Shown: positions 9,001-42,334 of the stretch, in pieces
Position numbering within the stretch: position 1 is the stretch's first letter
Layout of the letters: each line of letters begins with the position of its first letter
Assembly (NCBI GenBank): GCA_031284265.1
Contig: JAITAG010000068.1
Location: 1-42,334 of the forward strand
DNA length: 42,334 nt
DNA from: Puniceicoccales bacterium
GTDB lineage: Bacteria; Verrucomicrobiota; Verrucomicrobiia; Opitutales; LL51
Direction of reading: 5' to 3'
Made by a program: the position numbers and the translations under genes
Notes under the pieces: model-generated
Databases searched by the model: none
What the model was told of the DNA's origin: nothing
What the model saw: the letters and a program-made list of their open reading frames with translations, nothing else

Positions 9001-12000
9001 TCAGCTAAGATACCAGCAATCGTTTGATTCCATTCGCTTTCTCCGATCTCATTGTTGTCAGCTACTCGATCTTGATAATCAAGGTAAGATTCATCCGTGC
9101 ATAATTTGACATGGTTTTTCAATGATTCAAAATTACTCAGAATGGCCTGAATGTTTTCCAAGCGATCTCCAACAATTCTTTGCTGCAATGTTCGCGGTGT
9201 ACCGTCAGCGGGCTCATTGCTTGTCAGTGCATTATCCACGGTTGTTTTTGTTTCTGCCAAGTTATAATTTGTAAAACTATTCAAAGCCGCCGTCAAAGCG
9301 CTCTGTGTCGTTGCATTAAAAACATCTCTCAAATCTAATTGATATCCATCAATGGTCGTGGCAACAGACGATAATATCGTCGGCAATGATTGGGATGTGG
9401 CAATTTCAATGGTACCATCAAATATGCCTAATAATGTAAAAATTTCGTGATACTCTGGGAAAATACCATCCTTTATATTTCCATCATTCAATGCATTCCT
9501 AATCGTTTCAAACGCCAGTTTTTCGTCATCATCTGGAGTAGCTAAAGCGCTTACGATAATGTAGCGCAATTGCTCTCGTATGTTCGGCAATATTAGATTG
9601 TTTACATAGTCTACACTTGCATTTTTTTCTTCATCGGACACTGACCTATTTTGTAAAATTCCAATCCAATCATCGCTGACTCCCAATACTCGTAAATCGT
9701 CTGCGGATAAACTGGAATTCCCATTCCATGAAAAAGTCATCAAAAAAGCATCATATTGTGTTTTCAAATCTTGAAAAAGTCCTTTTTGTGTCATATCTTC
9801 TGTCGAGTATCCGTTTGTTTTGAGCGATTGGGTCAAACTTTCCAATGTTTCTCTCATAGCTTCCATGGTACTATTATTATCAATAAAAAGGTTATACGCA
9901 TAGGTATTTACGACGTATTTCCAATAAGCATTGGCATATCGCTCATCATAGCTATCCATGAGATTTTCGGTAGTACTGACGTAAACGGGCGGATTAACCG
10001 TTCCACTCCCAGGATATTTTACAATTTCATTTCTTATTTCATTTATTGCATCATTATTCCAAACATAATGTGCCTCTTCCGGATGAAACTCTCCCGATTC
10101 ACTGTCTAATGCCGTGCCAAAAGGTGTATCACTTCTGCTCTCTGAATTATCTATTTGTTTTAAAAAGCCAAATTTCTCTTCAATTGTGTTGTCCTCAATC
10201 TCTAAACAATACAGATCAAAGTTAGCGAGTATGTATTTCAATTGATTCTTATTATTGCTAGAGAAATGATCTTTATTAGTAATTCCATCAAGTGCTTTTA
10301 AAAATGAATATTGAAATGCCTTTTGGCCATTATCATCAAATCCCGAATATGCTGAGGATATCACTGTTTTTAAATCGTTCCCATCCGCATTCTGCGCCCA
10401 AAATCCGTCCCAATCGATTATATCTGCTCCAAAGGAAGTAATGATTCCATTCGCACCATAGGTAACACTTGCAAATTTTTCTACAAACAGATTTACTGCA
10501 CCAATAATATCAGTATCATCACCAATCGCAACCCACGTGTCATAATCAAATTCGGCTTTTTGAAGGAAATAAGTGCTCGCCGGATGAGTGGCCATATCAG
10601 CATTCTGCGTTTGCAACGAATCAATTTCTTCGGTCAAATGCTGTATTAATAAATCTGTCATTCCAGGATCAGTTTCTTCGGTTTCATTTTCATCATAAAA
10701 CACGTAGGAGTTGGTGGTATTTTTATCATTATCGCCATCGTTATTTCCAAAAAGATATATGGACGATGATTCTGACTCCAAGTCAACGGTAGCAATTATG
10801 CTACACAAAAGCTCTTTGAGTTTCCCTAATTGATCTACCGTGCTTTTCAGTTCATTAAGTTCATTATTCGCAAAAGCCCTTCGTAATTCATCTACAACTT
10901 GATAACGGAAATTTGCCAGTATTTGATTCGCGTAGATCCCTAACTCTGCCTGATCTTCATTGGTAATGGTAATCGTTATATCATCCGGCAACCCCGTGTC
11001 TTTTGTTTGCAGTAGCACCGATACGTCACTTCCATCAAATGTCGCCTCACTTATTTTTTTTAAAAGTTCCGTAAATAATCTATTGAGTTTATTAATCTGC
11101 GTAGCCTGATCATTATTGTTAGATGTTGCTATAGCACTACAAAGATTAGTCAAGATTGTATCGAGCTCAGTTTGGGTATCACTATCATTCTTTTTTCTTG
11201 TTAATGTTTTATAAATATTTGACTTTAAACCTTCTATATAGTTTTCCTTGACAGCCGTTTGGGTCTCTTCGCTGTATTCTAACTCACCGACAGTTTTTGT
11301 TTCCACGTCAACTTCTATTGCGTTAAAAACATAATCTTCCGCCAATTGCCAGAAATTTTCCGCATCTAAAAGCCCTTTAAATGTCGCACTGGCAGCTTCG
11401 ATTTTCGATTGGATTCCATAGGCATATACCCCACCATAAATCGCCAATAGGGATAAATTGTCCTGCCCTACCAATTTTGAAACCTGATTATTAAATTCAG
11501 TCGTGAAAATATTACCCGTGGTATCAATGATGTTTTCTGTTAAAAAATCACTTGCGGCATAATCATTGCCATTATAACTGCCCAACTGATCGACGATATT
11601 GAGTACGACCTGATTATTGAAGGATTGGTATAATTCGAGCTCCGCCGTGATAAGGGATTGTAATTTTCCCACATCATTTGATGTTAAAAATGTTTCGAAT
11701 GTATTTGCACCAATTGTATTTTTGACAACGTAAAATTCCGTGGAATTTGCATTATCTTTGAATTTTTTGATACGAAATAATTGGTCATTTAATGTGATAG
11801 TCGTTGAAACATCATCCATCGACAAGTTAGCCCAATTTGGGGTACCATTACTATCTAATAAATTGTCCCCTTCGTTTGTCGTAAGTCCCTGTATTGTCGT
11901 TTGAGCAGTATTTATAGATAGACAAATTTCATTTATTTGATTGTGCAGATTCAGGTTATTTAATGAGTCGTTATAACTATTAATTAGATCAGCTTTGTTT

Positions 12001-15000
12001 ACGTCGGTGCTACTTTTGCTTAAGTTAGTGAAGGCAGTTTTATAGCCGTCTAAACCATTCAAATTTGGATTATTTTCCAATCCAAAATCGCTAACAATTT
12101 TATTATGGGCCAATACAAACTGGCTCATAAGCCACCGCGAACGATCATAGGCTTCATCGACCTGCTCTAGATTCCTATGAGCAATTTCTGCAACAGAAGA
12201 AACAGTTTCCGCAGGATTTAAACCCGTAGCAGCGATAGTACCTATGGCGTCATACAAGCTTTCAAATTTCAACTCCCTAGGAAGATTTTGCACATCGGTG
12301 AAATATGGACCATTTTCGGGCACAAGTCCTTCCTGGGAAGGATTTTCCGTTTTAACCGCGCCACCTACGATGCCTTTTAATGTACCATTTTCCGGTGTCG
12401 ACGTATACAATACACTGGAAAAACTTACATCGTAGGCAGTCCTATCAATCGCATCGAGTAAACTGAGGGCATCCGCTTTCGTAAGTGTAAATTTTCGGTC
12501 TTCCACATTCCCCAATTCCTCTCGATCGACAAAACTTCTTAGCGCCGTCCTTAGGTCATTCAATGGGATAAATTGCGATTTCCAACTGGGATACAGCTTC
12601 GTCAACAGATTGCTCAAAGTCATTTGTTTGTTTTGTTGTAAAATTTGAAGCAACTGTTGTAAAATTACCTGGCCATGACTCGCCGCTAGATCGGTCAATT
12701 TGTTAGCCGGATCATCTCCGATTTGTACACCGTTTTGGATGCTTGCCATGTATTCGGTTTTAAACTTTTCTTCCAAACCTGATAATGCGCTGTGCATATC
12801 TTGAAAGGACGTTATAGCGTCTGTAGCATTTATTGAATCCAATTTGAATATATTAATATAAATTCCAACGGTTGTTCCTTTCAATAGGGCAACAGCCTCA
12901 TTGTAGGCGCTTGCAATTTTATTGAAAAGGTAAACATAATAATCCTTTTCTACGGTATTTTGAGTTGTACTATCAAAATCTGAGGATAAAAGTTCTATGG
13001 GCTGCAATGTATTAATATTGTCTTTTAATGCACCAGCCTCACTTACTGAACCCATGTTTACCAAATTCGCCATGGTTTCATTTAAGGCGCTGAATTTTGT
13101 CCCATAGGTTTCAAATTTAGTTTCAGGATTATAATCCGCTTGGGTAAAAATTATTTTTAGGCTATTTTCCCCATCGGCTTCCCAACTCGGTAAAATTGCT
13201 TTCAAAGTTGCCTCATCACAATTACCTTTGAGCGGCAATAGGTTACTTTCAAAGGAACTGATCAGTGAATAAACCGCACCGCTGTCTTCTAAAAATTTAA
13301 TCAAACCATTGAGAATAATTCCTAGGCTTGGTCGCAATGATGCAAATTCTGCCTTTAACCGTTCATAGGATGAATTTCCCCCTTCCCTATTGACATACCA
13401 GTCGGAGTATTTCTTTTGCGCTTTTTCTAGGAAAAATGCAACTTCGATGTGATCTAAAATGGTCAATAAATCCTCGATCGCATTCCTGAGATTGGCCTCA
13501 TTGGTGATATTTCCCGTACACGTTGCGTCGATATTTATAGCGTCTATGTCCGCTCTGATGATATCCAGTGCATTTTTGATCTGCGTAAAAACATCGTCCG
13601 CAGTACTTGAATCGGCGTTTTTAAGCGTTGTTATTAAGTTGTTAGAGGGATTTACCAATCCTTTTAAGCCTGCACTGACAACATTATACGCATCAACAAA
13701 TTTGTTAACGGTATAGGCATAGCCTCCCCCATCCTCAAAAGTTTTAGTTGCAGACGCCAATCCATTTAAATCGTTATAAAGTGTAGTGTAGCGATCGGAT
13801 TCCCTCGGATCTATAAAATTCTTAAATATGCCATTTAGACTCTTAATCGATTCGTCATCCGATTGGTTAACCAATCTATAAACGGATTTCATTTGATTCT
13901 GGATATCTGTCTTTGCACTATCCGAAATACTACTGGCTAAATCTTCGACACCTTTTGGTATATAGGTATCGCTTTTAATCAGTGGATAAACGTTGGCAAA
14001 CAGGGTTAAAAGCGAAAAATCAATGCTATTGGAACTGATATATTTGGTCAGTTGTGAAAATAGGGAAGTTCCATCCGTATAGGGAATATGTTCACAGGAA
14101 ACGAGCAATTGTTTGAATTGCGATAACAATTCTCCATTGTCATATAAACCCGATGTCCTATAGGCTTCAATTGCATTTAAGATTTCTGCAACGGGAATAT
14201 TGATATCCTGACTGGGATCATATCCCGTGTCCACATACTCGACAATCCCTTTGGCATATAGATACGCTTCCGCTTCTTCATTATATTCTTTTTCTCCATC
14301 TAAACTGGTCACACTCGCATCGACCGTTCCCGAACCATAGAGTCCATTTTCCATGGTACGCATGATTCCATGGTCAATGGCCATGCTGTAAATTTTATTG
14401 ACTAGTACCTGGCGCTTGACCGCATCCGAACGCCATCCCGTAATCGTTTCATCCAAAAGATAAGTATTTAACTCTTTTCTAAAATTGTTGGCTTTGATAT
14501 ACTCCAACAACAAATCAATGATCTCCAATTCTCGCTTTAACACAATCTGTTCACTGCGTATTCCCTGTAAAATGGCCTCCGCGAAAATATCATTACCATT
14601 CGCCAAATCATTATATTTTTCGAGTAAATTCGTCAGCTCAACGCTGTAATCACTGATATCATATTTCCCTTGGTCTTTGTAACATTTCGCCCCATATTTC
14701 TCGTAGACATGAATATAATCTATTAAAAGCCCGGAAATATTTAATGCGGATCGATCGGCCTTGAAAAAGACGGAAAATAGATCGTATTGATTGTCCAACT
14801 TGGGGTGGCGATGGGATGTACCATCTTCAAACACGTAGGCTTCTCCATGAAATTGAAAGGATTGTATGGCATCGTAATATACGCCGTAATTCGTGCGCAA
14901 TTCTTCAATTTTTTCCATTAGAAGCGTGCCCACGTCCTTACTATTCCTCGCTTTAGCGGTTCCAAACCACCCTCCCAATAATTTTGTAAATTTCACAAAA

Positions 15001-17450: not shown

Positions 17451-17458
17451 TTTTTCAT

Positions 17459-17463
17459 CCTCC
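17459..17463 (-). promoter_or_regulatory. Shine-Dalgarno (GGAGG) of the giant ORF
   Basis: Plus-strand cctcc is GGAGG on the minus strand, 8 nt upstream of the ATG at 17450. Confidence 0.6.
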
Positions 17464-21438: not shown

Positions 21439-22518
21439 TTAAAACGTTTGATATTCTGGGGTTAAGCAAAAATATGCATCCACAAGAATAGCAATTAAAC
21501 CTCCCGCGACATTTAGTCCGTTACCTCGAGGCAATAAAGAACTCAGGTGCTGAGCACATTTTTGCGATACATCTTGAATAAAAGTACAAAAACTCGCACT
21601 AATAAAACCAATACATATGACACCATTGGCAGCATTATGATGAATAATAGCATTAACGCACTCCCTTACCTTTTGCATTAACGTTTCGCACCACCTCAGC
21701 AAATCTCGGTTTTGTTCTCGTAGCTCAAACTTTTCAGCGGATAATTCCTTTTCTAATGGAGTAAAATTTTCGTCTCCTCCAACTAATTCTTTCTGTAACT
21801 CGGTTTTTCGTTGCTCGAATGTCTTTTGTAGCTCATACATTTTTTGACAAAATCCTTCTACTAACACAATTTCTCGTTGACCAAATTCCTCTATCAACGC
21901 TGCTTTTTGTTGATCAAAATCGGCCTGTAATGCAAAATTTTGTTGAGCAATTTCTGCTTCCAACGCGGCCGTTTGCTGGGTAAACGTTTCTTGCAATGTA
22001 ACTGCTTGTTGGGCGAATGCCGCCTCCAATGCTTCTCTTTGTTCCGGATTGACGGCTAGCCATTCAATGGCTTGTCGGTTAAATTCTTCCATAAACGCTG
22101 CTTTTTGTCGATCAAATTCGGCTTGTAATGTGAGGCTTTGTTGATTAAATTCCTCTATAAATTTAGTTCTTTCTCGTTCAAATTCTTCCAGAAAACTTTT
22201 AAACCAATCAACTATTTGTGATTCGAACTCGTCCAGCAATGATGCCGCTTCTTGTCGAGTAGGTTCACCATCAAGTGATTCGAGTACTTGTTGAGCAAAT
22301 TGCATGTGCAATGCGTCTTCAGATGCTTGGACTTGTTCCAAGGCGCCTTCGAATATTTCAACATCCCCTACACAATCTCCCAAACATGCATTTAGCCGAC
22401 TTTGTTCCTGTTGGAATTTCTCTTGTTTTTCTTGCAATTCCGAAGCGTAACCCCATTGAATCCCTGGTATTTTAGCTATACAGAGCATTCCTAACATAAT
22501 CATTTTTTTCATATCCAT
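21439..22518 (-). CDS. Shared-leader family member G (359 aa): leader, hendecad-repeat body, C-terminal hydrophobic region
   Basis: Leader MDMKKMIMLGMLCIAKIPGIQWGYASE. The body is built of 11-residue repeats (xxxLQxxFxQQ). The C-terminus NGVICIGFISASFCTF...GGLIAILVDAYFCL is hydrophobic. Confidence 0.85.
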   Translation of the reverse strand: MDMKKMIMLGMLCIAKIPGIQWGYASELQEKQEKFQQEQSRLNACLGDCVGDVEIFEGALEQVQASEDALHMQFAQQVLESLDGEPTRQEAASLLDEFESQIVDWFKSFLEEFERERTKFIEEFNQQSLTLQAEFDRQKAAFMEEFNRQAIEWLAVNPEQREALEAAFAQQAVTLQETFTQQTAALEAEIAQQNFALQADFDQQKAALIEEFGQREIVLVEGFCQKMYELQKTFEQRKTELQKELVGGDENFTPLEKELSAEKFELREQNRDLLRWCETLMQKVRECVNAIIHHNAANGVICIGFISASFCTFIQDVSQKCAQHLSSLLPRGNGLNVAGGLIAILVDAYFCLTPEYQTF

Positions 22519-22634
22519 ATCGCTCTTCCCCCTATTTAACCTCTGAATCCCCGCTTAGGAAAACAATGATAATAATAATAAAGCTAAGCGAAAAAATCAG
22601 AAATTTCCAATTAAAATAATGACTTTAATTTTTA

Positions 22635-23507
22635 CTAGAGATTTATCAGCCTATTCAACCAAGACGGAGAGGATGCTGGAACAGACAACGGTTGCGAATC
22701 TCTACATTGTTGCAACTCAGCCAATCGTCGATTGAATTCCTCCTGCAATCTCGCTTCTTCTCGAATTAATTCTGTTTCTATTTCTTTTATCCGCTGAGTG
22801 TATATTCTTTGTTGTTCCCTATTTTGATCGCAGCGATCTACTTGCAATTTCTTTTTCTGTCGATCAAATTCTGCCGATATTTTATCGCTTTGCCGTTTGA
22901 ATTCCATTCGAAGTGTGTTTTTTCCTCGATCAAATTTTTCTTGTCTCTCGATTATTCCTTGATCAAATATTTTCTGCAATGCAGTTGCTTCTCGATTGAA
23001 TTCTCCCTGTAATGCATACATATGTTGGTTGAATTCTTTTTGTATTTCCGCTAGTGATTCATCCCCGTGTTCCGATAATGCTTTGGATGTTTGGTTGAAT
23101 TTTTCTTGCAATACAGCTGCCCGTTGATTAAAATCCTCATATAAGTTCTTTTTTGCGCGTTCAAACCATTCATCTAATTCAGCTACGCAGTAATTGAATT
23201 CTCCTTGCAATGCTGTTTCATATTCAGCAAATTTTTCTTGCAATGCAGCGTCTTTTTGGGTGAACTCTTCCCGCAATGCAGTTTGTTTTTGAAAGTATAT
23301 TATTGGCAATTCAACATCCTGAAAAGTTGCATCCCTTTGCAATTCAACATATCTTTGTGCGAATTCTTCTCGCAACATAGCTCGCCGCCGTTCAAACTCT
23401 TCACGCAACGCCGCTAATTCACCTTCACACGAAGCTTGACAATGTTGAATTTCCGGTACCGTGCTCGTACAAAGCAAACCCAATATGATCATTTTTTTTA
23501 TATCCAC
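22635..23507 (-). CDS. Shared-leader family member F (290 aa): leader plus hendecad-repeat body
   Basis: Leader (M)DIKKMIILGLLCTSTVPEIQHCQAS. The start codon is GTG at 23507, preceded by AAGGAG with an 8-nt spacer. The body has repeats such as ALREEFTQKDA / ALQEKFAEYET / ALQGEFNYCVA. Confidence 0.85.
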   Translation of the reverse strand: MDIKKMIILGLLCTSTVPEIQHCQASCEGELAALREEFERRRAMLREEFAQRYVELQRDATFQDVELPIIYFQKQTALREEFTQKDAALQEKFAEYETALQGEFNYCVAELDEWFERAKKNLYEDFNQRAAVLQEKFNQTSKALSEHGDESLAEIQKEFNQHMYALQGEFNREATALQKIFDQGIIERQEKFDRGKNTLRMEFKRQSDKISAEFDRQKKKLQVDRCDQNREQQRIYTQRIKEIETELIREEARLQEEFNRRLAELQQCRDSQPLSVPASSPSWLNRLINL

Positions 23508-23536
23508 AAACTCATCTCCTTAAAATTTCAATTCTA

Positions 23537-23564
23537 AATATAATGAGGAATAGATATTTTGCAA
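23537..23564 (-). promoter_or_regulatory. Candidate sigma70-type promoter for family members F and G
   Basis: On the minus strand: TTGCAA, 16 nt, TATATT. It lies in a segment paralogous to 21273-21390. Confidence 0.4.
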
Positions 23565-23580
23565 ATTTTTTTTATAAAAT

Positions 23581-23615
23581 ACTAAAAAACCGGAGATTTT
23601 TCATTAAAAATCCCC
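23581..23615 (-). terminator. Rho-independent terminator after family member E
   Basis: Stem GGGGATTTTT / AAAAATCTCC (23592-23615) with a 4-nt loop, followed on the minus strand by GGTTTTTTAG. Confidence 0.55.
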
Positions 23616-23739
23616 GATTCTTGTTAAAAAATTGATTAATAATGATTTTGGCTCTTACCAAGACTTCAATTTTACATTAATAACCTTTCACGAATTGGTC
23701 ATTCCTATAATTGGCGATAAAAGCTTTACAACTTTTTGT

Positions 23740-24234
23740 TCACCGGAGTGAAGCCTGCAGCTGAGGAAGCGGAAGCGCGCACTCAAACTTTTTCAAAAAG
23801 CATTTATAGCAATTCAGAATCTGCGTACCGCTTTTATCGAGTTCATTTCGGAGCTCTATCTTTTCTTCCAGCGATAACCTGCCATTAAGCGCATTTCTCG
23901 CTGTGTGCAAAGCTTCCGGATGCGCATTGAAGGCATCATAGATTACCAATGCACTTGCCAATAGGGCTGCGCCCAGGGCTTGTCCATCCGTAGGATTATT
24001 ACCAACGAGCTTATACGTATTATTGGCTATTCCTTGAATTAGACCCGGCAACCACGCGCAATTATTCTTCGACAAACAGTCAAGGAATGATGGAAAAAAA
24101 TTATTTCCATAATCATTGACTGGACTGTATCCAACCACTGGATAAGTTGCATCTTCTTCCCTATTAATTGTAGCCGATCCACCGAGTGATAATCCGCATA
24201 ATATCCCCACGCTAATTATTTTTTTTATATCCAT
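23740..24234 (-). CDS. Shared-leader family member E (164 aa)
   Basis: The track ORF starts at a TTG (24291). The family-conserved ATG GAT ATA AAA AAA start is at 24234, behind AAAGGAAAAGAT. Leader MDIKKIISVGILCGLSLGGSATI. Confidence 0.75.
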   Translation of the reverse strand: MDIKKIISVGILCGLSLGGSATINREEDATYPVVGYSPVNDYGNNFFPSFLDCLSKNNCAWLPGLIQGIANNTYKLVGNNPTDGQALGAALLASALVIYDAFNAHPEALHTARNALNGRLSLEEKIELRNELDKSGTQILNCYKCFLKKFECALPLPQLQASLR

Positions 24235-24316
24235 ATCTTTTCCTTTATTGTATGATTTTAACCAATTCGACAATCCTTTCGAACGTTGCAACTTAAAAAG
24301 TCAATGCGCTCGTCGC

Positions 24317-25144
24317 TTAAGGAGTTGCTTGTGTAGCCTCTTGAGCAGCATTAAACAGGGATTTGCCTGAAGCAATGGCCTGTGTAAACCACGTCCCAAA
24401 AACTAACGCAGAAGCTTTCAAGTGGCCTCCCAAATTCAAGAAGCCTCCCTTTACACAATTAAGCCAATTCAAGGCATTAGAAATATTTTTCATGAACAGA
24501 GTTATACCATTCGCACGGCCATACACGCCCCCATAGTAAAGAGGCAGACCAATAAAATGACACAAAACTGCACTCCCAATAACACCACCAATAGCCAGCT
24601 TGTGCCGTCCTAAGAATTCGGTTAAGATTTCGGCTTTTTTGCTTAAGAAGGAGCGTTTTTGCTCTAATTTTTCTAATGTTGCTTGACGTTCTTTGATTCC
24701 TTCTTCTAAATTTCTGTGCTCTTCAGTAAACATTTGTCGCAAATGTTCGAGTGTGCCTGTGATTTCTTCTCTAGTAAAAACTTCACACTCACGAACTCTT
24801 TTTCCCAATTGCATGTATTCACTTCCTATTGTACCGAATACATCTTTCATTATTTGATTTAATTCTTCACAAGTTCTTGCATTGCCAATGGAATCTTGTG
24901 CCTTTCTTAAAAAATTTTCCAGATCGGTTTCAAACTGGCTAATAAGTCTGCCTGCCTCTACCTGTCTTCTGTTCTCTTTCAGATTTTCGATTTGTCTTAG
25001 TGCTGCATTTCTAGCTCGTGCCTCAGCACTTCCAGTTTTTGATCTAGCACTTCCTGTTTTTCCTGATGCATTGCAACCATTATACGCTCCAATTGTTCCG
25101 ATTGCACCGAGCAATCCCAATATGATCATTTTCTTTGTATCCAT
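24317..25144 (-). CDS. Shared-leader family member D (275 aa): leader, helical body, Gly-rich hydrophobic C-terminal region
   Basis: Leader MDTKKMIILGLLGAIGTIGAYNGCNAS. The C-terminal region LAIGGVIGSAVLCHFIGLPLYYGGVYG...ASALVFGTWFTQAIASG is hydrophobic. Confidence 0.85.
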   Translation of the reverse strand: MDTKKMIILGLLGAIGTIGAYNGCNASGKTGSARSKTGSAEARARNAALRQIENLKENRRQVEAGRLISQFETDLENFLRKAQDSIGNARTCEELNQIMKDVFGTIGSEYMQLGKRVRECEVFTREEITGTLEHLRQMFTEEHRNLEEGIKERQATLEKLEQKRSFLSKKAEILTEFLGRHKLAIGGVIGSAVLCHFIGLPLYYGGVYGRANGITLFMKNISNALNWLNCVKGGFLNLGGHLKASALVFGTWFTQAIASGKSLFNAAQEATQATP

Positions 25145-25178
25145 ATCTTTTTCTTTCCTTTAATATCGTTAAATATCG

Positions 25179-26003
25179 TTAATAAACTGTTATCTCCGGT
25201 GGAAGGGATGTTCCGTAAGTTGGATTGTCGTTCAAAGCCTTATATTGTCTATCCGCTGCGACAGAAAGCTCATTTATGCGATCTTGGACTAATCTCCTGC
25301 ATGCTTCCAGTCTTACTTCTTCTGCTGCTGCTACTTGGTCGAATGTTTCTCTCCGCGCTTCAAGTTGCGATATAGCATAAGAGAATTGCCTTTCTTCGTA
25401 GCCGAATTCCTCGCGTTGCTGATTTAATTTTTCGGATTCTGTATGTAAATCATGGTATTCTTGAGCAAGATGTATGATCTGATTATTAAAATCATCAATT
25501 TGACAATTAAATTCTTCATTCAACTCTCCAAATATTAATTGTACTGTTCGTTCCACCTGTTCTTTACAATCTATAAATCCTCGGAATTTCGCATCCAAAT
25601 AAGCATCCAAATTTTGAAATCGGGAATATAATTCTTGCAATTCTGCATCTATTGCTGCTCGTATGTTAGCATCTATAAATTCCGGAGGTTGATTTTCCAA
25701 AAAACCCCACAAATTTTGAGATCGGCAACATAATTCTTTCCGTTCTGTTTGTATTTCTTTCCGTTCTCCATTGTCTTCTATTCCATTCAATTGATCTTCT
25801 AAAGTGTTCTCAAAATCCCAAAGCATCCGAGTCAATTGACCCTCCCGAACATCCACAAAATTCTGAAGATGATAATATAATTTTTCCAATTCTGCTTGTT
25901 CTTTGGGAGGCAACTCTATCTCTTCCGAAGCGTAACTCCATTGAATCCCAAACGTTCCGGTTGCACCAAGCAACCCCAATGTAATCATTTTTTTTATATC
26001 CAT
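25179..26003 (-). CDS. Shared-leader family member C (274 aa), acidic helical body
   Basis: Leader MDIKKMITLGLLGATGTFGIQWSYASE. The 5' UTR is conserved with member B (GTCAAATAAAGAAAG). Confidence 0.85.
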   Translation of the reverse strand: MDIKKMITLGLLGATGTFGIQWSYASEEIELPPKEQAELEKLYYHLQNFVDVREGQLTRMLWDFENTLEDQLNGIEDNGERKEIQTERKELCCRSQNLWGFLENQPPEFIDANIRAAIDAELQELYSRFQNLDAYLDAKFRGFIDCKEQVERTVQLIFGELNEEFNCQIDDFNNQIIHLAQEYHDLHTESEKLNQQREEFGYEERQFSYAISQLEARRETFDQVAAAEEVRLEACRRLVQDRINELSVAADRQYKALNDNPTYGTSLPPEITVY

Positions 26004-26048
26004 ATTTTTTTACTTTCTTTATTTGACAAAAAATTCGACTCTTCTCCA

Positions 26049-26615
26049 CTATCCTTGCAGGATTTCGTTGAGCTGACATATACGCGTGATGCAATCTTGA
26101 AACATACCTAACCACTGATTAATCTCATTGACATTAGTAGGATAACAAATAGTAGAATCCTTCGCAATATTTTTTATTTCATTGATTAATGTTAAGTATC
26201 GATCATGTAGACACATGCATTCCATTCGCAATTCTGCTATAGCCCCTGGTACTTCTGCAGTATTTTGATATACAGATTCCGATGCTCGTGTACCCTGCTG
26301 TTGCAATGCACTTCTTGCCCCTTTCAATGTTGCGCATATCAGAGACATATCACCTGAGCTTCTGACTTCATCCCAAATACCACAAAGTTGATTCCTAAAT
26401 TCGCTTAGCAGTCTAATTTGAGCACTAGCTACTGCCTGTTCACATTCTCCTTGAAAGTAGTCTTTACGTACTTGAAAACCAGAGAACGCTCTTTCTAATT
26501 CTTGATAAAAGTTATAACAGTTGCTCAACGTTTCTCCTGAAGCATGCCACCATTGAATTCCAAACGTTCCGGTTACACCAAGCAACCCCAACATGATCAT
26601 TTTTTTAATATCCAT
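26049..26615 (-). CDS. Shared-leader family member B (188 aa)
   Basis: The track ORF extends to 26714, but the family-conserved ATG GAT ATT AAA AAA ATG start is at 26615. That start also removes the overlap with member A. Leader MDIKKMIMLGLLGVTGTFGIQWWHASGE. Confidence 0.8.
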   Translation of the reverse strand: MDIKKMIMLGLLGVTGTFGIQWWHASGETLSNCYNFYQELERAFSGFQVRKDYFQGECEQAVASAQIRLLSEFRNQLCGIWDEVRSSGDMSLICATLKGARSALQQQGTRASESVYQNTAEVPGAIAELRMECMCLHDRYLTLINEIKNIAKDSTICYPTNVNEINQWLGMFQDCITRICQLNEILQG

Positions 26616-26670
26616 ATCTTTTCCTTTCTTTATTTGACAGAAAAACTTAGACTTCTTTCCTTTGATTAGC

Positions 26671-27255
26671 CTAGGGCTGCGGTAATAAATTGAAACGCGC
26701 GACACAATTTTCAAGCATCTCTAACAATTCTTCAATGTCAGTAACATTCAAAAAACGAATAGCAGGACTGTTAGCAATTTCTTCCATGTCCGCATTTAAG
26801 CATTCGTATTGCCCTCGTAGCCCTCGGTATTGCTGCGAAAATTCTAACATAAAATCAGTCATGGCGTTAAAATCCATTTGATCTACAGCTCCCAATAATT
26901 GCCGCTTTTGTTGTTGAAATTCAAATATTTTTCGTTCAATTGCTTCCAGTTCCGCAATAAGATGTCTATTATTTATTGGGTCTAAAGTGTTCCAATTGTC
27001 TAATATCCATTTCCAATATTTATCTTGCAACATAGTTATTCCTTGATCAAGGAATAGTCCTAATGAATTTTTCAATGCTTGAAAATTTGAAAACTCCTCT
27101 TCTAGCCTATGATAATGTTTCGAACATTCTTCCAATCTGGTCTTTATCGCTTCGTAGTCTTGGCTCGAATCCATAAATAAAGCATGCCCCCATTGAATTC
27201 CAAATGTTCCGGTTACACCAAGCAACTCCAACATGATTATTTTTTTAATATCCAT
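26671..27255 (-). CDS. Shared-leader family member A (194 aa)
   Basis: Leader MDIKKIIMLELLGVTGTFGIQWGHALF. The first 75 nt or so are nearly identical to members B and C. Confidence 0.85.
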   Translation of the reverse strand: MDIKKIIMLELLGVTGTFGIQWGHALFMDSSQDYEAIKTRLEECSKHYHRLEEEFSNFQALKNSLGLFLDQGITMLQDKYWKWILDNWNTLDPINNRHLIAELEAIERKIFEFQQQKRQLLGAVDQMDFNAMTDFMLEFSQQYRGLRGQYECLNADMEEIANSPAIRFLNVTDIEELLEMLENCVARFNLLPQP

Positions 27256-27273
27256 ATTTTTATTTATGTTATT

Positions 27274-27301
27274 TTTATATTAATTATAAAACTTCTGTCA
27301 A
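27274..27301 (-). promoter_or_regulatory. Candidate sigma70-type promoter for family members A to E
   Basis: On the minus strand: TTGACA (27301-27296), 16 nt, TATAAA (27279-27274), about 18 nt upstream of the ATG at 27255. Confidence 0.35.
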
Positions 27302-27355
27302 AGCTAAAATTTTTTATAAAAAACCATCCATTGACGTTTAAATATTCACTTACGC

Positions 27356-28195
27356 TCACTTAAAATCTCTAATCGCACAAGCCCCAAAAGTTGGTTCAAC
27401 TTGCTTAGCATATTCCTTTAATACCCAATCGCCCTTATCGAGACAATAACTTTGCTTTCCAACCTTTAGAGTTCCCGGTTGTCCAACCTGAACATAACCT
27501 TCTGCTTTCATATTTTCCGGGTTACTTCTTTTATTAAAATCCGATCTGCAGTCACCCAGTTTAAGTATATGCCACGAAGGTATGTGTTCACATGAACTTT
27601 CAAATGTAAAAACTATCGGTTTTGGTGCCGGTGTTGGCGTTGCCGTTGGCGTTGGCGTCGGACGCGGCGTTGGCGTCGGCATTGCTGTTGGCGTTGGCGT
27701 CGGACGCGGCGTTGGTGAAAACGTTACCGTTGCCGTTGGCATTGGCGTCGGCGTTGCCATTGCTGTTGGCGTTAGCACCGGACGCGGCGTTGGTGAAAAC
27801 GTTACCGTTGCCGTTGGCATTGGCGTCGGCGTTACCATTGCTGTTGGCGTTGGCACCGGTGAGGACGTCGAATTGGTGTCCCCAAAACTGGCTCCATCTA
27901 GTCGTCCCAACGGTGCTTCTCTATTACGAAGAAGGAACATTCCTATTCCTATTCCTGCCGCTACTGCTGCGAACGCTGCAATTTTTGCACAAATTCCACA
28001 CCTCGATTGAGAATCCGATCGAGAATCCTGCTCATTTTCGTCATCAAAGTCGCTACCACGTCCGGGAGATCGGGTCTGTTGCCTACTATATACCACAAGA
28101 TCATCATTGGTTGTGCTACCTTGAATAGCATTAAACATACTTCCCGCTATCATAATAGCTGTTATACTACTTCTTTCTACTCGTTTTATACTCAT
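27356..28195 (-). CDS. Membrane-anchored Pro/Thr-repeat protein with a Cys-containing C-terminal domain (279 aa)
   Basis: It has an acidic N-terminal segment and a TM-like stretch (CGICAKIAAFAAVAAGIGIGMFLL). These are followed by about 100 aa of PTPT/PMPT repeats and a C-terminal domain of about 85 aa with 4 Cys. Confidence 0.8.
   Translation of the reverse strand: MSIKRVERSSITAIMIAGSMFNAIQGSTTNDDLVVYSRQQTRSPGRGSDFDDENEQDSRSDSQSRCGICAKIAAFAAVAAGIGIGMFLLRNREAPLGRLDGASFGDTNSTSSPVPTPTAMVTPTPMPTATVTFSPTPRPVLTPTAMATPTPMPTATVTFSPTPRPTPTPTAMPTPTPRPTPTPTATPTPAPKPIVFTFESSCEHIPSWHILKLGDCRSDFNKRSNPENMKAEGYVQVGQPGTLKVGKQSYCLDKGDWVLKEYAKQVEPTFGACAIRDFK
27702..27857. repeat. 2 x 78-nt tandem repeat (26-aa unit) inside the Pro/Thr-repeat gene
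   Basis: The unit ggacgcggcgttggtgaaaacgttaccgttgccgttggcattggcgtcggcgtt... recurs at 27702 and 27780 with 2-3 differences. Degenerate gttggcgt(t/c)gg units flank it on the left. Confidence 0.85.
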
Positions 28196-28222
28196 TATAA
28201 TCCTTCAAGATTTTGTTAATTA

Positions 28223-39004: not shown

Positions 39005-39082
39005 TGGCGTCCCGTATGGGATTCGAACCCATGTTGCAGGAATGAAAATCCTGTGTCCTAGACCAGACTAGACGAACGGGAC
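39005..39082 (-). tRNA. tRNA-Glu (anticodon TTC), CCA encoded
   Basis: Reverse complement is GTCCCGTTCGTCTAGTCTGGTCTAGGACACAGGATTTTCATTCCTGCAACATGGGTTCGAATCCCATACGGGACGCCA. The anticodon loop is TTTTCAT. Confidence 0.85.
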
Positions 39083-39162: not shown

Positions 39163-39528
39163 ATGGAAAGCTTTGGTGAGCCTAAAGTGAAAAGCAATAA
39201 TCTCTGGCAAACTTTAGAACAACAGATTCGAGAAAATGGCATAGAAATTGATCGGCCCAAAGGAAAAGCACACCCTCGCTTTCCCAGGTTGATTTACCCA
39301 ATTGATTACGGCTATATTCCCCATACGAGATCGGCGGACGGCGAAGGTATCGATCTGTTTTTAGGAACATCCGAAATAAAGCAAATTGTAGGTTTGATTT
39401 GTACGTTTGATGCGGTAAAAAAAGATTCTGAAATTAAAATTCTTTATGCCTGTCTAGAAAAAGAAATCCAAACAGCAGTGACTATGTTGTCCCATCCGCC
39501 GATGTATGCCTTACTTGTCCGCCGTTAA
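39163..39528 (+). CDS. Short, divergent family-I inorganic-pyrophosphatase-like protein (121 aa)
   Basis: YPIDYGYIPHTRSADGEGIDLFLG aligns with E. coli Ppa [23 protein letters not shown]. The protein is much shorter than a canonical Ppa, and the DGDPVD acidic motif is altered. Confidence 0.5.
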   Translation: MESFGEPKVKSNNLWQTLEQQIRENGIEIDRPKGKAHPRFPRLIYPIDYGYIPHTRSADGEGIDLFLGTSEIKQIVGLICTFDAVKKDSEIKILYACLEKEIQTAVTMLSHPPMYALLVRR

Positions 39529-39534
39529 AAACCT

Positions 39535-40075
39535 TCCGCGAGGTTCTGTCCGTACCCAACAAGGAAGCCTGCCAGAGGGCTCTGCCCTCTGGACTCCCCA
39601 AGGAGTCACGGACTCCTTGACCTTATTTTGCGGCCCAGCCGGCGAAAGTTTCGCCCGGCTGGGCCGCAGAGGGCGAAATTCTTATTTTCCTTTGGGCTTT
39701 CTCAGGCCCGCCCGCGGCATCGCCCGTGGAGCGGCTGGAAATATAATTCACTGACCGAGCCGATGCGCGACGCGCATCAACTCGGCCCAAAATGGTTAAA
39801 ATAGTTAGCCCAGCCCGCGGCTTCGCCGCGGGCTGGGCCTCTAGGGCCCATTCGGGCTTTCCATCTGGCATCGCCGGATGGAAAGCCCGCAACCCCGATC
39901 CAGGGGGTGGACCCCCTGGCGGGAGTCCAGAGGGCAGAGCCCTCTGGAAAGCACCCCTGGCGGGGATTCTAAGGACGCGTAGCCCTTAGGCAAATATCTC
40001 CTGGAAAGGAGCCCTTGGGCAACTGCCACAGAGCTCCTGCCCGGCGCTTCACGCCGGGCAGGTTAATTTTCTTTT
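39535..40075 (+). repeat. GC-rich multi-hairpin array A (at least 10 distinct perfect or near-perfect hairpins)
   Basis: Hairpins read directly: 39572-39592, 39599-39619, 39630-39667, 39755-39785, 39808-39838 (14 bp), 39854-39888 (16 bp) and 39900-39919. Further hairpins lie at 39927-39947, about 39969-39989, and 40036-40062. The composition contrasts sharply with the AT-rich flanks. Confidence 0.9.
40036..40075 (+). terminator. Rho-independent terminator (last hairpin of array A)
   Basis: 11-bp stem CCTGCCCGGCG / CGCCGGGCAGG with loop CTTCA, followed by TTAATTTTCTTTT. It lies between convergent genes. Confidence 0.6.
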
Positions 40076-40103
40076 GCCCTTCAGGCCTTTAGCTAGCTTA
40101 GAG

Positions 40104-40787
40104 CTATTTTTGCTCACTCGAAACTATGCGCGATATATTTCCAAACCAATCGCAAATTTTTGGGAATATAAAACTTCCACCGACTAGCGCAAGTATTGTC
40201 TTAGGATTTGTTGTCACGAGATTTGCGCCAGCCTTGGTCGCTATCTTTAAAAGATCCCAAGTACATTTCAGCATTACCGGTCCCACATTTGTCAATGCCC
40301 ATTTGCTGCCATTCCACGTCAAATGTTTGACTCTTCTCATTGTTTTTTGCACACTGGAACTATATTCAGGATCACAAATACTCCTTTTTATTTCTTCGAA
40401 TGAATAAGCATCGATGGAGAAAAATTTTGCTTTTTGCAGTATTTTTCTATTCAGGGTTTTTCCTTCTTCGAAAAACACACAATACTTTTCCTCAAACACA
40501 AGGCAACATGATGTCTTGGAACTTTTTAATACCAGAATTTTTCCCGATTGCAATCGTTTCAATAAATGTAATCGAACTTTTTCTTTCATTTTATTTTCCA
40601 TAATCTGGGCAATAACATCGAACATTATATCCGAATCAAGCTCTTTAACGTTTTCGGCTCTACGATCAAATCCCGATATCGGAAGATTTGAATTTCCTTC
40701 CGTGGTATAGAAACAACTTGCTGAACCAACGGCAGATACGGCAACACTTGCCATCAATAATAATTCTAATTTTTTCATTTTATCCAT
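40104..40787 (-). CDS. Hypothetical secreted protein (about 227 aa from ATG 40787)
   Basis: The track ORF begins at a TTG (40838). The ATG at 40787 gives MDKMKKLELLLMASVAVSAVGSASCFY, which is signal-peptide-like. Confidence 0.65.
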   Translation of the reverse strand: MDKMKKLELLLMASVAVSAVGSASCFYTTEGNSNLPISGFDRRAENVKELDSDIMFDVIAQIMENKMKEKVRLHLLKRLQSGKILVLKSSKTSCCLVFEEKYCVFFEEGKTLNRKILQKAKFFSIDAYSFEEIKRSICDPEYSSSVQKTMRRVKHLTWNGSKWALTNVGPVMLKCTWDLLKIATKAGANLVTTNPKTILALVGGSFIFPKICDWFGNISRIVSSEQK

Positions 40788-40918
40788 AATTTTCCATTGT
40801 TGATACAAGCCAATCGCACTTGTTTCTGTTTTTGTCAAGTAAAAAATAAGAAAACTTCACAGAAATACTCTTCTATGAAAAACAGAGAAATGAAAACATG
40901 AAAACTATCTGCAAGCGT

Positions 40919-41191
40919 CTATATTTTCACCGATATCTCCTTGAGATTACACCCATTACAAGCTTCACACTGGGCAATAGTACAATCCATGGAAAATTTA
41001 GTTTGGTCTTCCAGCCATAGGATACGTTCAATAAATGGCTTCTTTAAAATTTCATATAACGGGCAATCTTCCGGAAGATTTTTTTCCGATATCAACATCA
41101 GCTTCGCCATTTTCTCTACCCGTATTTCTGATTCTTCAACCTCATGTTGATTCTGTTGATCCTCTTGTCTCATACCTTTTTTTTGTTTCAT
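40919..41191 (-). CDS. Small hypothetical protein (90 aa), acidic N-terminus, C-terminal Cys cluster (C-x5-C-x2-C-x2-C)
   Basis: ORF in the same orientation as its neighbours. Cluster CTIAQCEACNGC. No family recognised. Confidence 0.5.
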   Translation of the reverse strand: MKQKKGMRQEDQQNQHEVEESEIRVEKMAKLMLISEKNLPEDCPLYEILKKPFIERILWLEDQTKFSMDCTIAQCEACNGCNLKEISVKI

Positions 41192-41266
41192 GCCTCTAAA
41201 TTGGTATTTCTAATGCTTCTGACAATGCGATTACGTGAAAAATGTGATTTTGATAAAACTTTAACA

Positions 41267-41941
41267 CTATTCCCCGATACCTACGCTACCTTCGTCCTCC
41301 ATTGAGTTTAAATAAATGATAAGCAAAATTATTCCTTCCCGAACATCAAATTCTACCCGTTCCGCTATCGTGCGATTAAAACAAGAGGTATATCCAGGAA
41401 AATAGAGCTCCTGATTTTCCAATTCCCAGCGTAATCCATACGTATTGATTTTTCCAGAAGACATACCCAATAGTGATAATTTCGTTCCTACGGGAAGATT
41501 TAATGCCAAATGATTGCGTATCGCAAAACATAGATTTGGTGATATGTAACCGATTGAATCCGTTTGCGCTAAAATACCTACGTTATTCAAAATATGATCA
41601 ATATATCCACCGTTGATACCGAGAATGATCGATGGCGATAGATGATTTTCCCGGACAAATTTTAGCGCCTTTTGAAAGTCTGAGGACGATTGATCTTTGA
41701 TTACAATTTTCTTTGTTTTTTCCGCAATTGGTTTCTTTATACTATCCCAATCGCCGATGACGACGTCCGCTGCAATGCCTTTCTGGAAAAGTAAATTTGA
41801 AGCTCCATCCGCGGCAATAATAGGTAAAGCGAAATGCGAAAAAAAATCTCTTCTCGGCAACGTTCCGCTTAAACAAACCAACGAGCGATAAATCCCTAGC
41901 GATGGCAGCAAGGCCAAGAATTTTTTATCCTCATCGAGCAT
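41267..41941 (-). CDS. Thiamine pyrophosphokinase
   Basis: AADGASN, VIGDWDS, DQSSSDFQKAL and GINGGYIDH correspond to the TPK motifs ADGGAN, GDxDS, DQDxTDxxKAL and GGRxDH. The track start at 42028 is a TTG lying in GC-rich element B, so I prefer the ATG at 41941. Confidence 0.8.
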   Translation of the reverse strand: MLDEDKKFLALLPSLGIYRSLVCLSGTLPRRDFFSHFALPIIAADGASNLLFQKGIAADVVIGDWDSIKKPIAEKTKKIVIKDQSSSDFQKALKFVRENHLSPSIILGINGGYIDHILNNVGILAQTDSIGYISPNLCFAIRNHLALNLPVGTKLSLLGMSSGKINTYGLRWELENQELYFPGYTSCFNRTIAERVEFDVREGIILLIIYLNSMEDEGSVGIGE

Positions 41942-42024
41942 CTTAGTGGGGTAGATTAAACTTAAACATCGAATTGCAAACTCTAAGGGCTGCTCGCCAT
42001 TAGAATCTTCGCCAGGGGATGTTT

Positions 42025-42272
42025 CCAAGGGCTACGCGCCCTTGGATCCCCGCCAGGGGGGCTTTCCAGAGGGCTCTGCCCTCTGGACTCCCGCCAGGGG
42101 ATCCATCCCCTGGACCGGGGTTGCGGGCTTTTCACCGGGCGATGCCCGGTGGCAGGCCCGAAGGGGCCCTAAAGGCCCCGCCCGCGGCTTCGCCGCGGGC
42201 AGGGCAACTTTTTTTAATAAGACTATTTTTTTGCCGAGTCGATGTGTGTTACACATCGACTCGGCCAGTGAA
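42025..42272 (-). repeat. GC-rich multi-hairpin element B: inverted, diverged copy of the array A core (39747-39990)
   Basis: By eye, the reverse complement aligns module for module with 39747-39990. The shared string cccgcaacccc(g/a)(g/t)tccagggg..tgga..cccctggcgggagtccagagggcagagccctctggaaagc is nearly identical in both copies. Confidence 0.9.
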
Positions 42273-42334
42273 AAATTTCGTCCAAAGGAAATATTAGGAA
42301 TTGAGGGACGTAAGTTTTTGAGGGCAAAAGCTGC

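Follow-up and report, generated by a model that had tools for sequence, protein, structure and literature searches.

REP repeats form dimers and clusters, lie mostly downstream of genes, where they sometimes supply the stop codon, and are already known in a verrucomicrobium, Opitutus terrae (PMC3733652). Compensatory changes are common in REPINs (PMC3116915), and group 1 RAYTs have been reported in 21 classes, including Clostridia (PMC5581495). The two GC-rich hairpin arrays described here, A and B (Table 1), are probably inverted copies of a REP/BIME-like family of GC-rich palindromic DNA repeats. Members of this family are scattered between the genes of an AT-rich clade of Puniceicoccales (Verrucomicrobiota) from termite guts. 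Both arrays lie in the window, i.e. the whole 42,334-nt stretch of contig JAITAG010000068.1 that was analysed, and are the two arrays seen in these 42 kb; neither a hairpin scan nor the covariance model presented below detected other GC-rich hairpins there.

The window also encodes, on its minus strand, a giant protein (a single ORF of >5,820 codons running off the left end, 3-17462) and about eight tandem paralogous genes (21442-28204) whose products of 180-370 aa share the N-terminus MDIKKMI.LGLL; with this signal-peptide-like N-terminus, they look like an expanded family of secreted proteins. A patatin-like phospholipase is encoded at 33425-35497, and two tRNA-Glu genes (CTC, TTC) are present just left of array A (38155-38229 and 39005-39082, minus strand). 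Ankyrin-repeat proteins are encoded in the related locus L127 (8402-12681) and secretins in L129, L130, L134 and L136; these phospholipase, ankyrin and secretin genes suggest a host-associated, possibly intracellular lifestyle of the clade. An exact-protein look-up of a pyrophosphatase-like gene returned no record.

Array A is located between two convergent genes (39163-39528, plus strand; 40104-40787, minus strand) and starts with a partial left element (39548-39735), after which comes a unit resembling B. It is colinear with composite elements of three Puniceicoccales MAG loci (L033:6104-6367; L084:4578-4867; L118:2825-3100) and contains an imperfect inverted repeat of 44 nt (39555-39598 / 39921-39964, 84%). 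Its left-terminal anchor hairpin is the GGGAGTCCAGAGGGC-AGA-GCCCTCTGG module read on the minus strand. The left part of A was also considered as a separate inverted array, a possibility that was dropped since the colinear relatives show it to be the left arm of one dyad. Array B, composed of one long hairpin, the centre and the right arm, lies 41 nt upstream of the start of the TPK gene, and its central hairpin is followed by T7 on the plus strand.

Table 1. Coordinates in the window of the hairpin arrays, of their modules and of the genes and gene remnant between them.
Feature	Coordinates	Strand	Basis or remark
Array A, whole GC-rich hairpin cluster	39548..40065	.	hairpin scan, GC segment
Left-terminal anchor hairpin CCAGAGGGC-TCT-GCCCTCTGG, then ACTCCC	39572..39592	-	
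Left arm module 2, hairpin CAAGGAGTC-ACG-GACTCCTTG, then T-rich tract	39599..39619	.	
Left arm long hairpin TGCGGCCCAGCCGG...CCGGCTGGGCCGCA	39629..39668	.	homologous GCGGCC..ATGCG.. hairpins in relatives
Degenerate copy of central GC hairpin, closing the partial left element of A	39705..39735	.	71% to 39808-39838
Copy A of duplicated block, unit common to copy B	39738..40004	+	alignment, pair audit
H1, long hairpin of GGCCGAG..ATGCGC type, two C.A mismatches in A	39755..39785	.	
H2, central 14-bp GC hairpin, loop TTC, dyad centre of composite element	39808..39838	.	
H3, right-arm 17-bp long hairpin	39853..39889	.	14/16 pairs covary in family
H4, CCAGGGGG-TGGA-CCCCCTGG	39900..39919	.	
H5, anchor module GGGAG-TCCAGAGGGC-AGA-GCCCTCTGGA, identical in A and B	39921..39948	+	
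H6, right-terminal module CTAAGGAC-GCGTA-GCCCTTAG	39969..39989	.	
Extra GC hairpin, right edge of array A	40036..40062	.	41 nt from stop codon of 244/227-aa gene
Three-gene cassette between A and B	40104..41941	-	Pfam TPK domains, L126 gene calls, kept in relatives
227-aa gene of cassette	40104..40787	-	
90-aa gene of cassette	40919..41191	-	
TPK (thiamine-kinase) gene of cassette	41267..41941	-	
mcsB remnant, 21 nt, last codons, SLQFDV*	41962..41982	-	between array B and TPK start
Array B, copy B block (42012-42280) and degenerate terminal module (41983-42018)	41983..42280	-	
H6 counterpart in B, TCCAAGGGC-TACGC-GCCCTTGGA	42024..42046	.	
Anchor H5 counterpart in B	42065..42087	-	
H4 counterpart in B	42094..42113	.	
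H3 counterpart in B, three internal mismatches	42124..42160	.	
H2 counterpart in B, loop flipped relative to flanks, one C.A/T.G position	42175..42205	.	
H1 counterpart in B, perfect 15-bp stem	42233..42265	.	

Each of the two blocks, of roughly 270 bp, is a chain of six hairpins. An earlier note, made from the letters alone, had proposed that A and the reverse complement of B align hairpin for hairpin, and this was borne out: when 39738-40004 is aligned, with gaps, to the reverse complement of 42012-42280, 220 of 263 columns are identical (84%), and the ungapped core (39796-39974 and 42039-42217) forms an inverted repeat of 179 nt that is 86% complementary. The five clean Watson-Crick double changes and the two double changes involving G.T that had been read by eye are exactly those retrieved by an audit of every one of the 71 stem pairs of the six hairpins. 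Indeed, from A to B, (i) two C-G pairs become T-A in H1, (ii) one T-A pair becomes C-G in H3, (iii) one G-C pair becomes A-T in H4 and (iv) one T-A pair becomes C-G in H6, and the two changes with G.T are A-T to T.G in H2 and T.G to G-C in H3. Randomised placements of the 43 substitutions yielded 0.58 clean doubles on average, with P(>=5) = 1.5e-4, and P(>=7) = 5e-6 with the G.T cases included. The audit also revealed six uncompensated single changes that break a pair, to which the note had made no reference: two C.A in H1 and one A.C in H6 of array A, and C.A, G.A and C.A in the H3 counterpart of array B.

In the central hairpin (14-bp stem), the loop reads TTC in A but GAA at the aligned position of B, i.e. 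flipped relative to the flanks as had been noticed, and the central hairpins of the two arrays are 94% identical when compared in direct orientation. As for the hairpin of about 39700-39745 said to be carried by A only, the hairpin at 39705-39735 is indeed extra, while the material restricted to A is larger than had been stated and comprises 39548-39735 and 40005-40065.

A scan of genome collections with the module identical in A and B as query retrieved at least 118 loci, and among the loci found, only those of Puniceicoccales MAGs have several modules in common with the window. In these MAGs, the modules follow the order CCAGAGGGC-TCY, CAAGGAGTC, a long hairpin (GCGGCC..ATGCG..) and an AT-rich spacer, then the central GCCCCGCCCGCGGC hairpin, a long hairpin, CCAGGGGA-TGGA, [...] and CTAAGGGC-GCGCA. 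The element is built of near-perfect, independent hairpins, with a dyad around the central 14-bp GC hairpin and, in each arm, a long hairpin followed by short ones. A covariance model of the core, run on 125 kb made up of the window and the Puniceicoccales loci, recovered 16 strong copies, located on either strand, besides some 50 weaker matches, and all of these are intergenic. The right-arm model also recognises left arms, on the opposite strand, with 57-73 bits, and the element is therefore a dyad with the central hairpin as its centre. Shuffled modules and partial copies also occur. In one locus (L084:1-410), two inverted right arms surround a single central hairpin and form a palindrome of ~400 nt with a predicted energy of -322 kcal/mol. 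Outside genome collections, a plasmid BLAST of array A gave no match, and a metagenome scan with CCAGGGGATGGATCCCCTGG gave six high-GC contigs with hardly any similarity outside the 20-nt pattern itself (best 36 nt, 89%).

Over the 16 copies, 97.3% of the cells are paired, versus 39-48% in slid controls, and stems are perfect Watson-Crick helices of up to 15-21 bp. Changes on both sides affect 24 of 37 pairs (89 cells), a level reached by none of 500 shuffles. CG-to-GC swaps are frequent across the family. The view that structure rather than sequence is maintained is thus supported both between A and B and over the 16 family copies.

The surroundings of the arrays were compared with those of related loci. 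Turnover and REARRANGEMENT were observed: at orthologous sites, arrays are present in some relatives and absent in others. For instance, the array of L036 begins 0 nt after the TAG stop of a gene whose ortholog in L100 (90% identical) is followed by plain AT-rich DNA with no array. Arrays occur in convergent, unidirectional and divergent regions, always intergenic, and 13 of 31 are at contig ends. A Logan contig (L126, from the assembly of SRR14710909, with the same sequences) covers exactly the stretch from A to B and ends in both arrays.

Homologs of its TPK assign the window to Puniceicoccales, the closest ones being from termite-gut MAGs (74-78% identity). The cassette (TPK, an 82-aa and a 230-aa gene) is kept in four relatives (L127, L129, L130 and L134), and TPK itself also in L135 and L136. 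The cassette of L130 has no array on either side, and the arrays of L127, L129 and the window differ; in L127, arrays are present on both sides of the cassette and are unlike each other. Relative to a BPD_transp gene, the cassette is inverted in L127 as compared with L129 and L130. L129 (6752-8099) carries, downstream of TPK, a tandem of three copies of the 82-aa gene. A tRNA-like sequence follows the cassette in L127 (7903-7977), L129 and L130 and is absent at that place in the window; read by eye, it was tentatively assigned to tRNA-Gly.

Five relatives share the order adh_short-mcsA-mcsB-TPK, which is the ancestral one, and in these five the C-terminus of McsB (..IQDLQFD..*) is encoded directly upstream of TPK. 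The gap between mcsB and TPK is 4-22 nt in L130 and L134-L136, and is occupied in L129 by an array insert of 250 nt. On either side of the latter array stands one copy of an 18-nt direct duplication derived from the mcsB end (L129:5730-5749 and 5955-5990); one copy closes mcsB, and the other is a leftover. In L127, the same mcsB remnant as in the window (L127:5949-5975) stands beside a different array end. Neither mcsB nor the other ancestral neighbours were found within the 42-kb window. The gene order and this remnant show that the TPK cassette of the window has been cut out of an ancestral mcsA-mcsB-TPK operon. Because of the remnant, of the presence or absence of arrays at orthologous sites and of their position at contig ends, the arrays are regarded as insertions that mark breakpoints.

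One module, the anchor (H5 in array A), is also present outside the Puniceicoccales. The anchor, with the sequence GGGAGTCCAGAGGGCAGAGCCCTCTGG, was found as GTCCAGAGGGC-NNN-GCCCTCTGG (module GGGAGTCCAGAGGGC-RRM-GCCCTCTGG) in 56 species-level genomes of several phyla, as against about 1-10 matches expected by chance according to our estimate from base composition. Its hosts are Clostridia, Paenibacillus, Alphaproteobacteria, Magnetococcia, Puniceicoccales and one Dehalococcoidia MAG. GGGA or GGGT is found directly upstream in 116 of 135 copies, and on the strand thus tagged the loop is AGC, AGA, AAA or GGA about 100 times, versus about once for each reverse complement. In the loci of Clostridia, tag (5' GGG) and loop (purine-rich) agree in orientation in neighbouring hairpins as well (46:4 versus 6:40, p = 6e-16). 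The 3' side of the anchor often lies 0-10 nt from the stop codon of a gene on the opposite strand. ORF clustering around 118 anchor loci identified no recurrent neighbouring protein, and a full-text literature search for the anchor sequence retrieved only unrelated shRNA or primer matches. A single match was obtained in 2.9 million viral contigs, and the family is therefore not phage-borne.

The setting of the anchor varies with the host. In nine Paenibacillus isolates (L041, L045, L055, L061, L069, L080, L101, L110 and L117), the tagged anchor is present once per fetched locus, with a similar upstream flank (catagcaagacccgacc...) in several species and, in nearly all cases, a second hairpin GGCCCTCCC..GGGAGGG following it; here the anchor, for which Rfam gave no match, resembles a single-copy element kept in synteny more than a dispersed repeat. 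Ruminococcus sp. SIG541 carries a multi-copy element of ~260 nt (L022:5989-6251; L079:3738-3998; L087; L067; L056), 96-97% identical between contigs, in which the anchor is the middle one of three hairpins, and this three-hairpin core is also present in about 10 other Oscillospiraceae MAGs. In the Clostridia MAG MGBC165025 (L106:30-215; L102:7525-7668; L003:60-144), the anchor and two further hairpins form the unit of head-to-tail tandem arrays with a 62-nt period, and an array of this kind is present in an IMG/VR contig (L133:61-145). Finally, a three-hairpin array composed of TCCAAGGGC or CCGGGGGCC, then GGGAGTCCAGAGGGC, then GGGGTTCGGGGC-GRA was found in alphaproteobacterial loci (L008, L029, L040, L060, L083, L105 and L115) and in Magnetococcus loci (L062, L064, L071, L114 and L116), its upstream flank being similar between different alphaproteobacterial MAGs.

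It could be, and this is put forward only tentatively, that GGG(A/T)-GTCCAGAGGGC-RRM-GCCCTCTGG and its neighbouring hairpins represent a third, 'GGG-tagged' REP-like superfamily. Such hairpins would combine a strand-specific tag with a purine-rich loop, and would frequently begin right at a stop codon. Its range would include Bacillota, Pseudomonadota (Alphaproteobacteria, Magnetococcia) and Verrucomicrobiota, and probably Chloroflexota. If true, such a superfamily would imply a conserved partner binding single-stranded DNA or RNA, together with horizontal spread, and the Puniceicoccales symbionts would have built the anchor module into large dyad arrays that drive genome rearrangement. A near-invariant tagged hairpin of 27 nt in 56 genomes is unlike what lineage-specific REP-RAYT co-evolution predicts, and points to a partner; a RAYT-like one is conceivable.

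The earlier note had left the choice between a structured RNA and a DNA-hairpin-dependent mobile or recombination element; of these, a DNA repeat is now favoured, and RNA is disfavoured by the lack of Rfam matches, the strand symmetry and the turnover. According to the RNA reading, selection would act at the RNA level on one strand of the arrays, which would serve either as a non-coding RNA with several hairpins or in cis as part of a UTR (as terminator, protector of the mRNA 3' end or protein sponge). We consider this unlikely, even though the covariation is very strong, the folding z-scores are extreme, many arrays start within a few nt of a stop codon, the anchor has a strand-specific tag and a purine-rich loop, and a terminator-like hairpin with a T-tract is found at 39839-39807 (minus strand, i.e. 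H2) and at 39599-39619 (plus strand). Against it, no strand stands out. The G.T pairs had been taken to point to the plus strand of A and the minus strand of B, a proposal that is not supported, since the same strand carries four C.A mismatches that would be G.U on the other one, so that neither strand is preferred. Both strands fold strongly (z about -9 to -11): folded as RNA, array A reaches -167.6 kcal/mol on the minus strand (z -10.5) and -151.9 on the plus strand (z -9.3), the minus strand thus folding better, and the plus strand of array B folded as DNA has a z-score of -11.6. On the model strand, the non-Watson-Crick cells of the 16 copies comprise 8 G.T, 8 A.C and 7 others, with no tolerance of G.U over A.C. 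Given this equality and the frequent CG-to-GC swaps, complementarity is kept symmetrically, as in DNA palindromes and not as in an RNA made from one strand. None of 4227 Rfam models matched the window at the gathering threshold, matches by E-value in 39450-42334 were at chance level (E 0.04-9, all far under gathering scores), and no match was obtained at the gathering threshold for the anchors of 18 other loci. The RNA reading is further opposed by the presence of arrays in every gene orientation, by their partial and shuffled copies, by their presence or absence at orthologous sites and by a consensus promoter scan, whose count was not above shuffle expectation. As a side effect of such DNA repeats, the transcripts of neighbouring genes may well be terminated or protected by the hairpins, some of which precede T-tracts. 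A 92-aa ORF across B was rejected as coding, as a protein search found no homologs.

Two other explanations bear on the origin of the arrays. In the first view, a 2-kb cassette carrying TPK and two small genes would be mobile or invertible, with A and B as its functional ends in inverted orientation. The arrays are inverted and bracket exactly three genes, which have left the ancestral operon, are inverted in L127 relative to L129 and L130, and have arrays on both sides in L127; even so, this is very improbable, as the genes are housekeeping-like and keep the same order without arrays in L130, L134 and L136, such arrays stand alone at many other, unrelated loci, no transposase or invertase is found among the cassette genes, the two side arrays of L127 differ, and rearrangement through homologous recombination of dispersed repeats accounts for these facts as well. 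It is also improbable, if less strongly so, that the arrays are a by-product of mutation without enzyme or function, with palindromes that arose and grew through replication slippage, gene conversion and template switching in a symbiont genome rich in AT and poor in recombination. Such an origin is in line with the flipped loops and swapped arms of the central palindrome, with the 18-nt duplication of L129 read as a tandem reiteration with flanking DNA, with the degenerate module copy at 41983-42018 and with the six uncompensated mismatches between A and B. These observations contrast with the same tagged 27-nt anchor in 56 genomes, with a module order that is kept among MAGs only about 75% identical in TPK and with precise starts at stop codons that recur; the tagged anchor, the kept order and these starts therefore suggest recognition by some machinery.

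As REP/BIME-like DNA repeats, the arrays would be non-autonomous and would spread and be reshuffled via single-stranded DNA hairpin intermediates, by means of a trans-acting HUH/Y1 (RAYT-like) enzyme and/or of replication slippage and template switching. Palindromy could be kept in two ways, by a failure of unfoldable copies to propagate and by intrastrand templated correction, through which a change in one arm is transferred to the other, and recombination across the palindromic centre could flip loops and swap arms. This reading of the arrays as REP/BIME-like repeats is weakened by the absence of a GTAG or CGTC tag and, in the window and the fetched loci, of a RAYT, by units that exceed classical REPs and by the anchor tag, which shows that one strand matters; the anchor may have an RNA or single-strand role.

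The arrays are a worked example of palindromic DNA repeats that mimic textbook 'RNA covariation', for which equal G.T and A.C counts and the folding of both strands provide cheap discriminating tests, relevant to screens for non-coding RNAs. They also explain the break sites of MAG and unitig assemblies in these termite-gut Verrucomicrobia. As they mark torn operons (mcsB|TPK), rearrangement in this host-associated lineage may be driven by them.

Among the systems with which the arrays can be compared, attC sites have R''/R' core sites (RYYYAAC ... GTTRRRY) on both sides of an imperfect palindrome, the same orientation along the cassette array and an integrase nearby. In A and B, which are inverted, no GTTRRRY and one RYYYAAC were found, and no integrase is encoded among the seven ORFs scanned against Pfam. 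Among palindromic MITE-like repeats of reduced or AT-rich genomes, Rickettsia palindromic elements (RPEs) are in-frame insertions within genes, and the Correia elements of Neisseria possess a TA duplication as well as defined terminal inverted repeats. The arrays resemble RPEs, Correia elements and yeast mitochondrial GC clusters as GC-rich hairpin insertions in an AT-rich, host-associated genome, present or absent and linked to rearrangement; they differ from RPEs and Correia elements in that they are all intergenic, and their candidate terminal inverted repeats and target site duplication amount to a 44-nt imperfect inverted repeat and one flanking duplication (18 nt, L129). With multi-hairpin structured RNAs they share stable chains of hairpins and strong covariation, whereas they have no Rfam match, no G.U enrichment and equivalent strands, and are multi-copy and shuffled.

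The tagged REP superfamilies (PMC3733652) are similar to the arrays in the combination of a tag, a stem and a loop of 2-5 nt, in subfamilies that differ by complementary stem changes, in dimers and groups, and in their presence in the PVC superphylum. Their tag is GTAG or CGTC, whereas the tag is GGGA or GGGT here, and the cross-phylum arrays are mostly head-to-tail, an arrangement said to be under-represented in tagged REPs (PMC3733652). The 16 hairpins of A and B were checked for GTAG, CTAC, CGTC and GACG at the foot, and none carries any of these. REP-encoded peptides of O. terrae, the sole sequence compared from the supplement of that paper, showed no correspondence to the array modules. 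A phmmer search with the E. coli RayT in six-frame ORFs of the window and of all fetched loci (genome fragments) found no RAYT at E <= 10. The array unit is an ordered chain of 6-10 different hairpins over 270-450 bp, as compared with 20-40 nt for a REP and ~100 nt for a doublet, and the anchor module is kept across phyla whereas REP-RAYT pairs are usually lineage-specific. The arrays are therefore kept out of the tagged REP families, owing to the absence of a GTAG/CGTC tag, of a RAYT among the ORFs searched and to their larger, more ordered units. They nevertheless probably work like REP/BIME clusters: both consist of short GC-rich palindromes that are extragenic, numerous (16 strong copies and about 50 weaker ones here) and clustered in mixed orientation, with inverted pairing (the dyad, L084:1-410), both keep their hairpins through compensatory changes (between A and B, and over the 16 copies), and both leave genes undisrupted.
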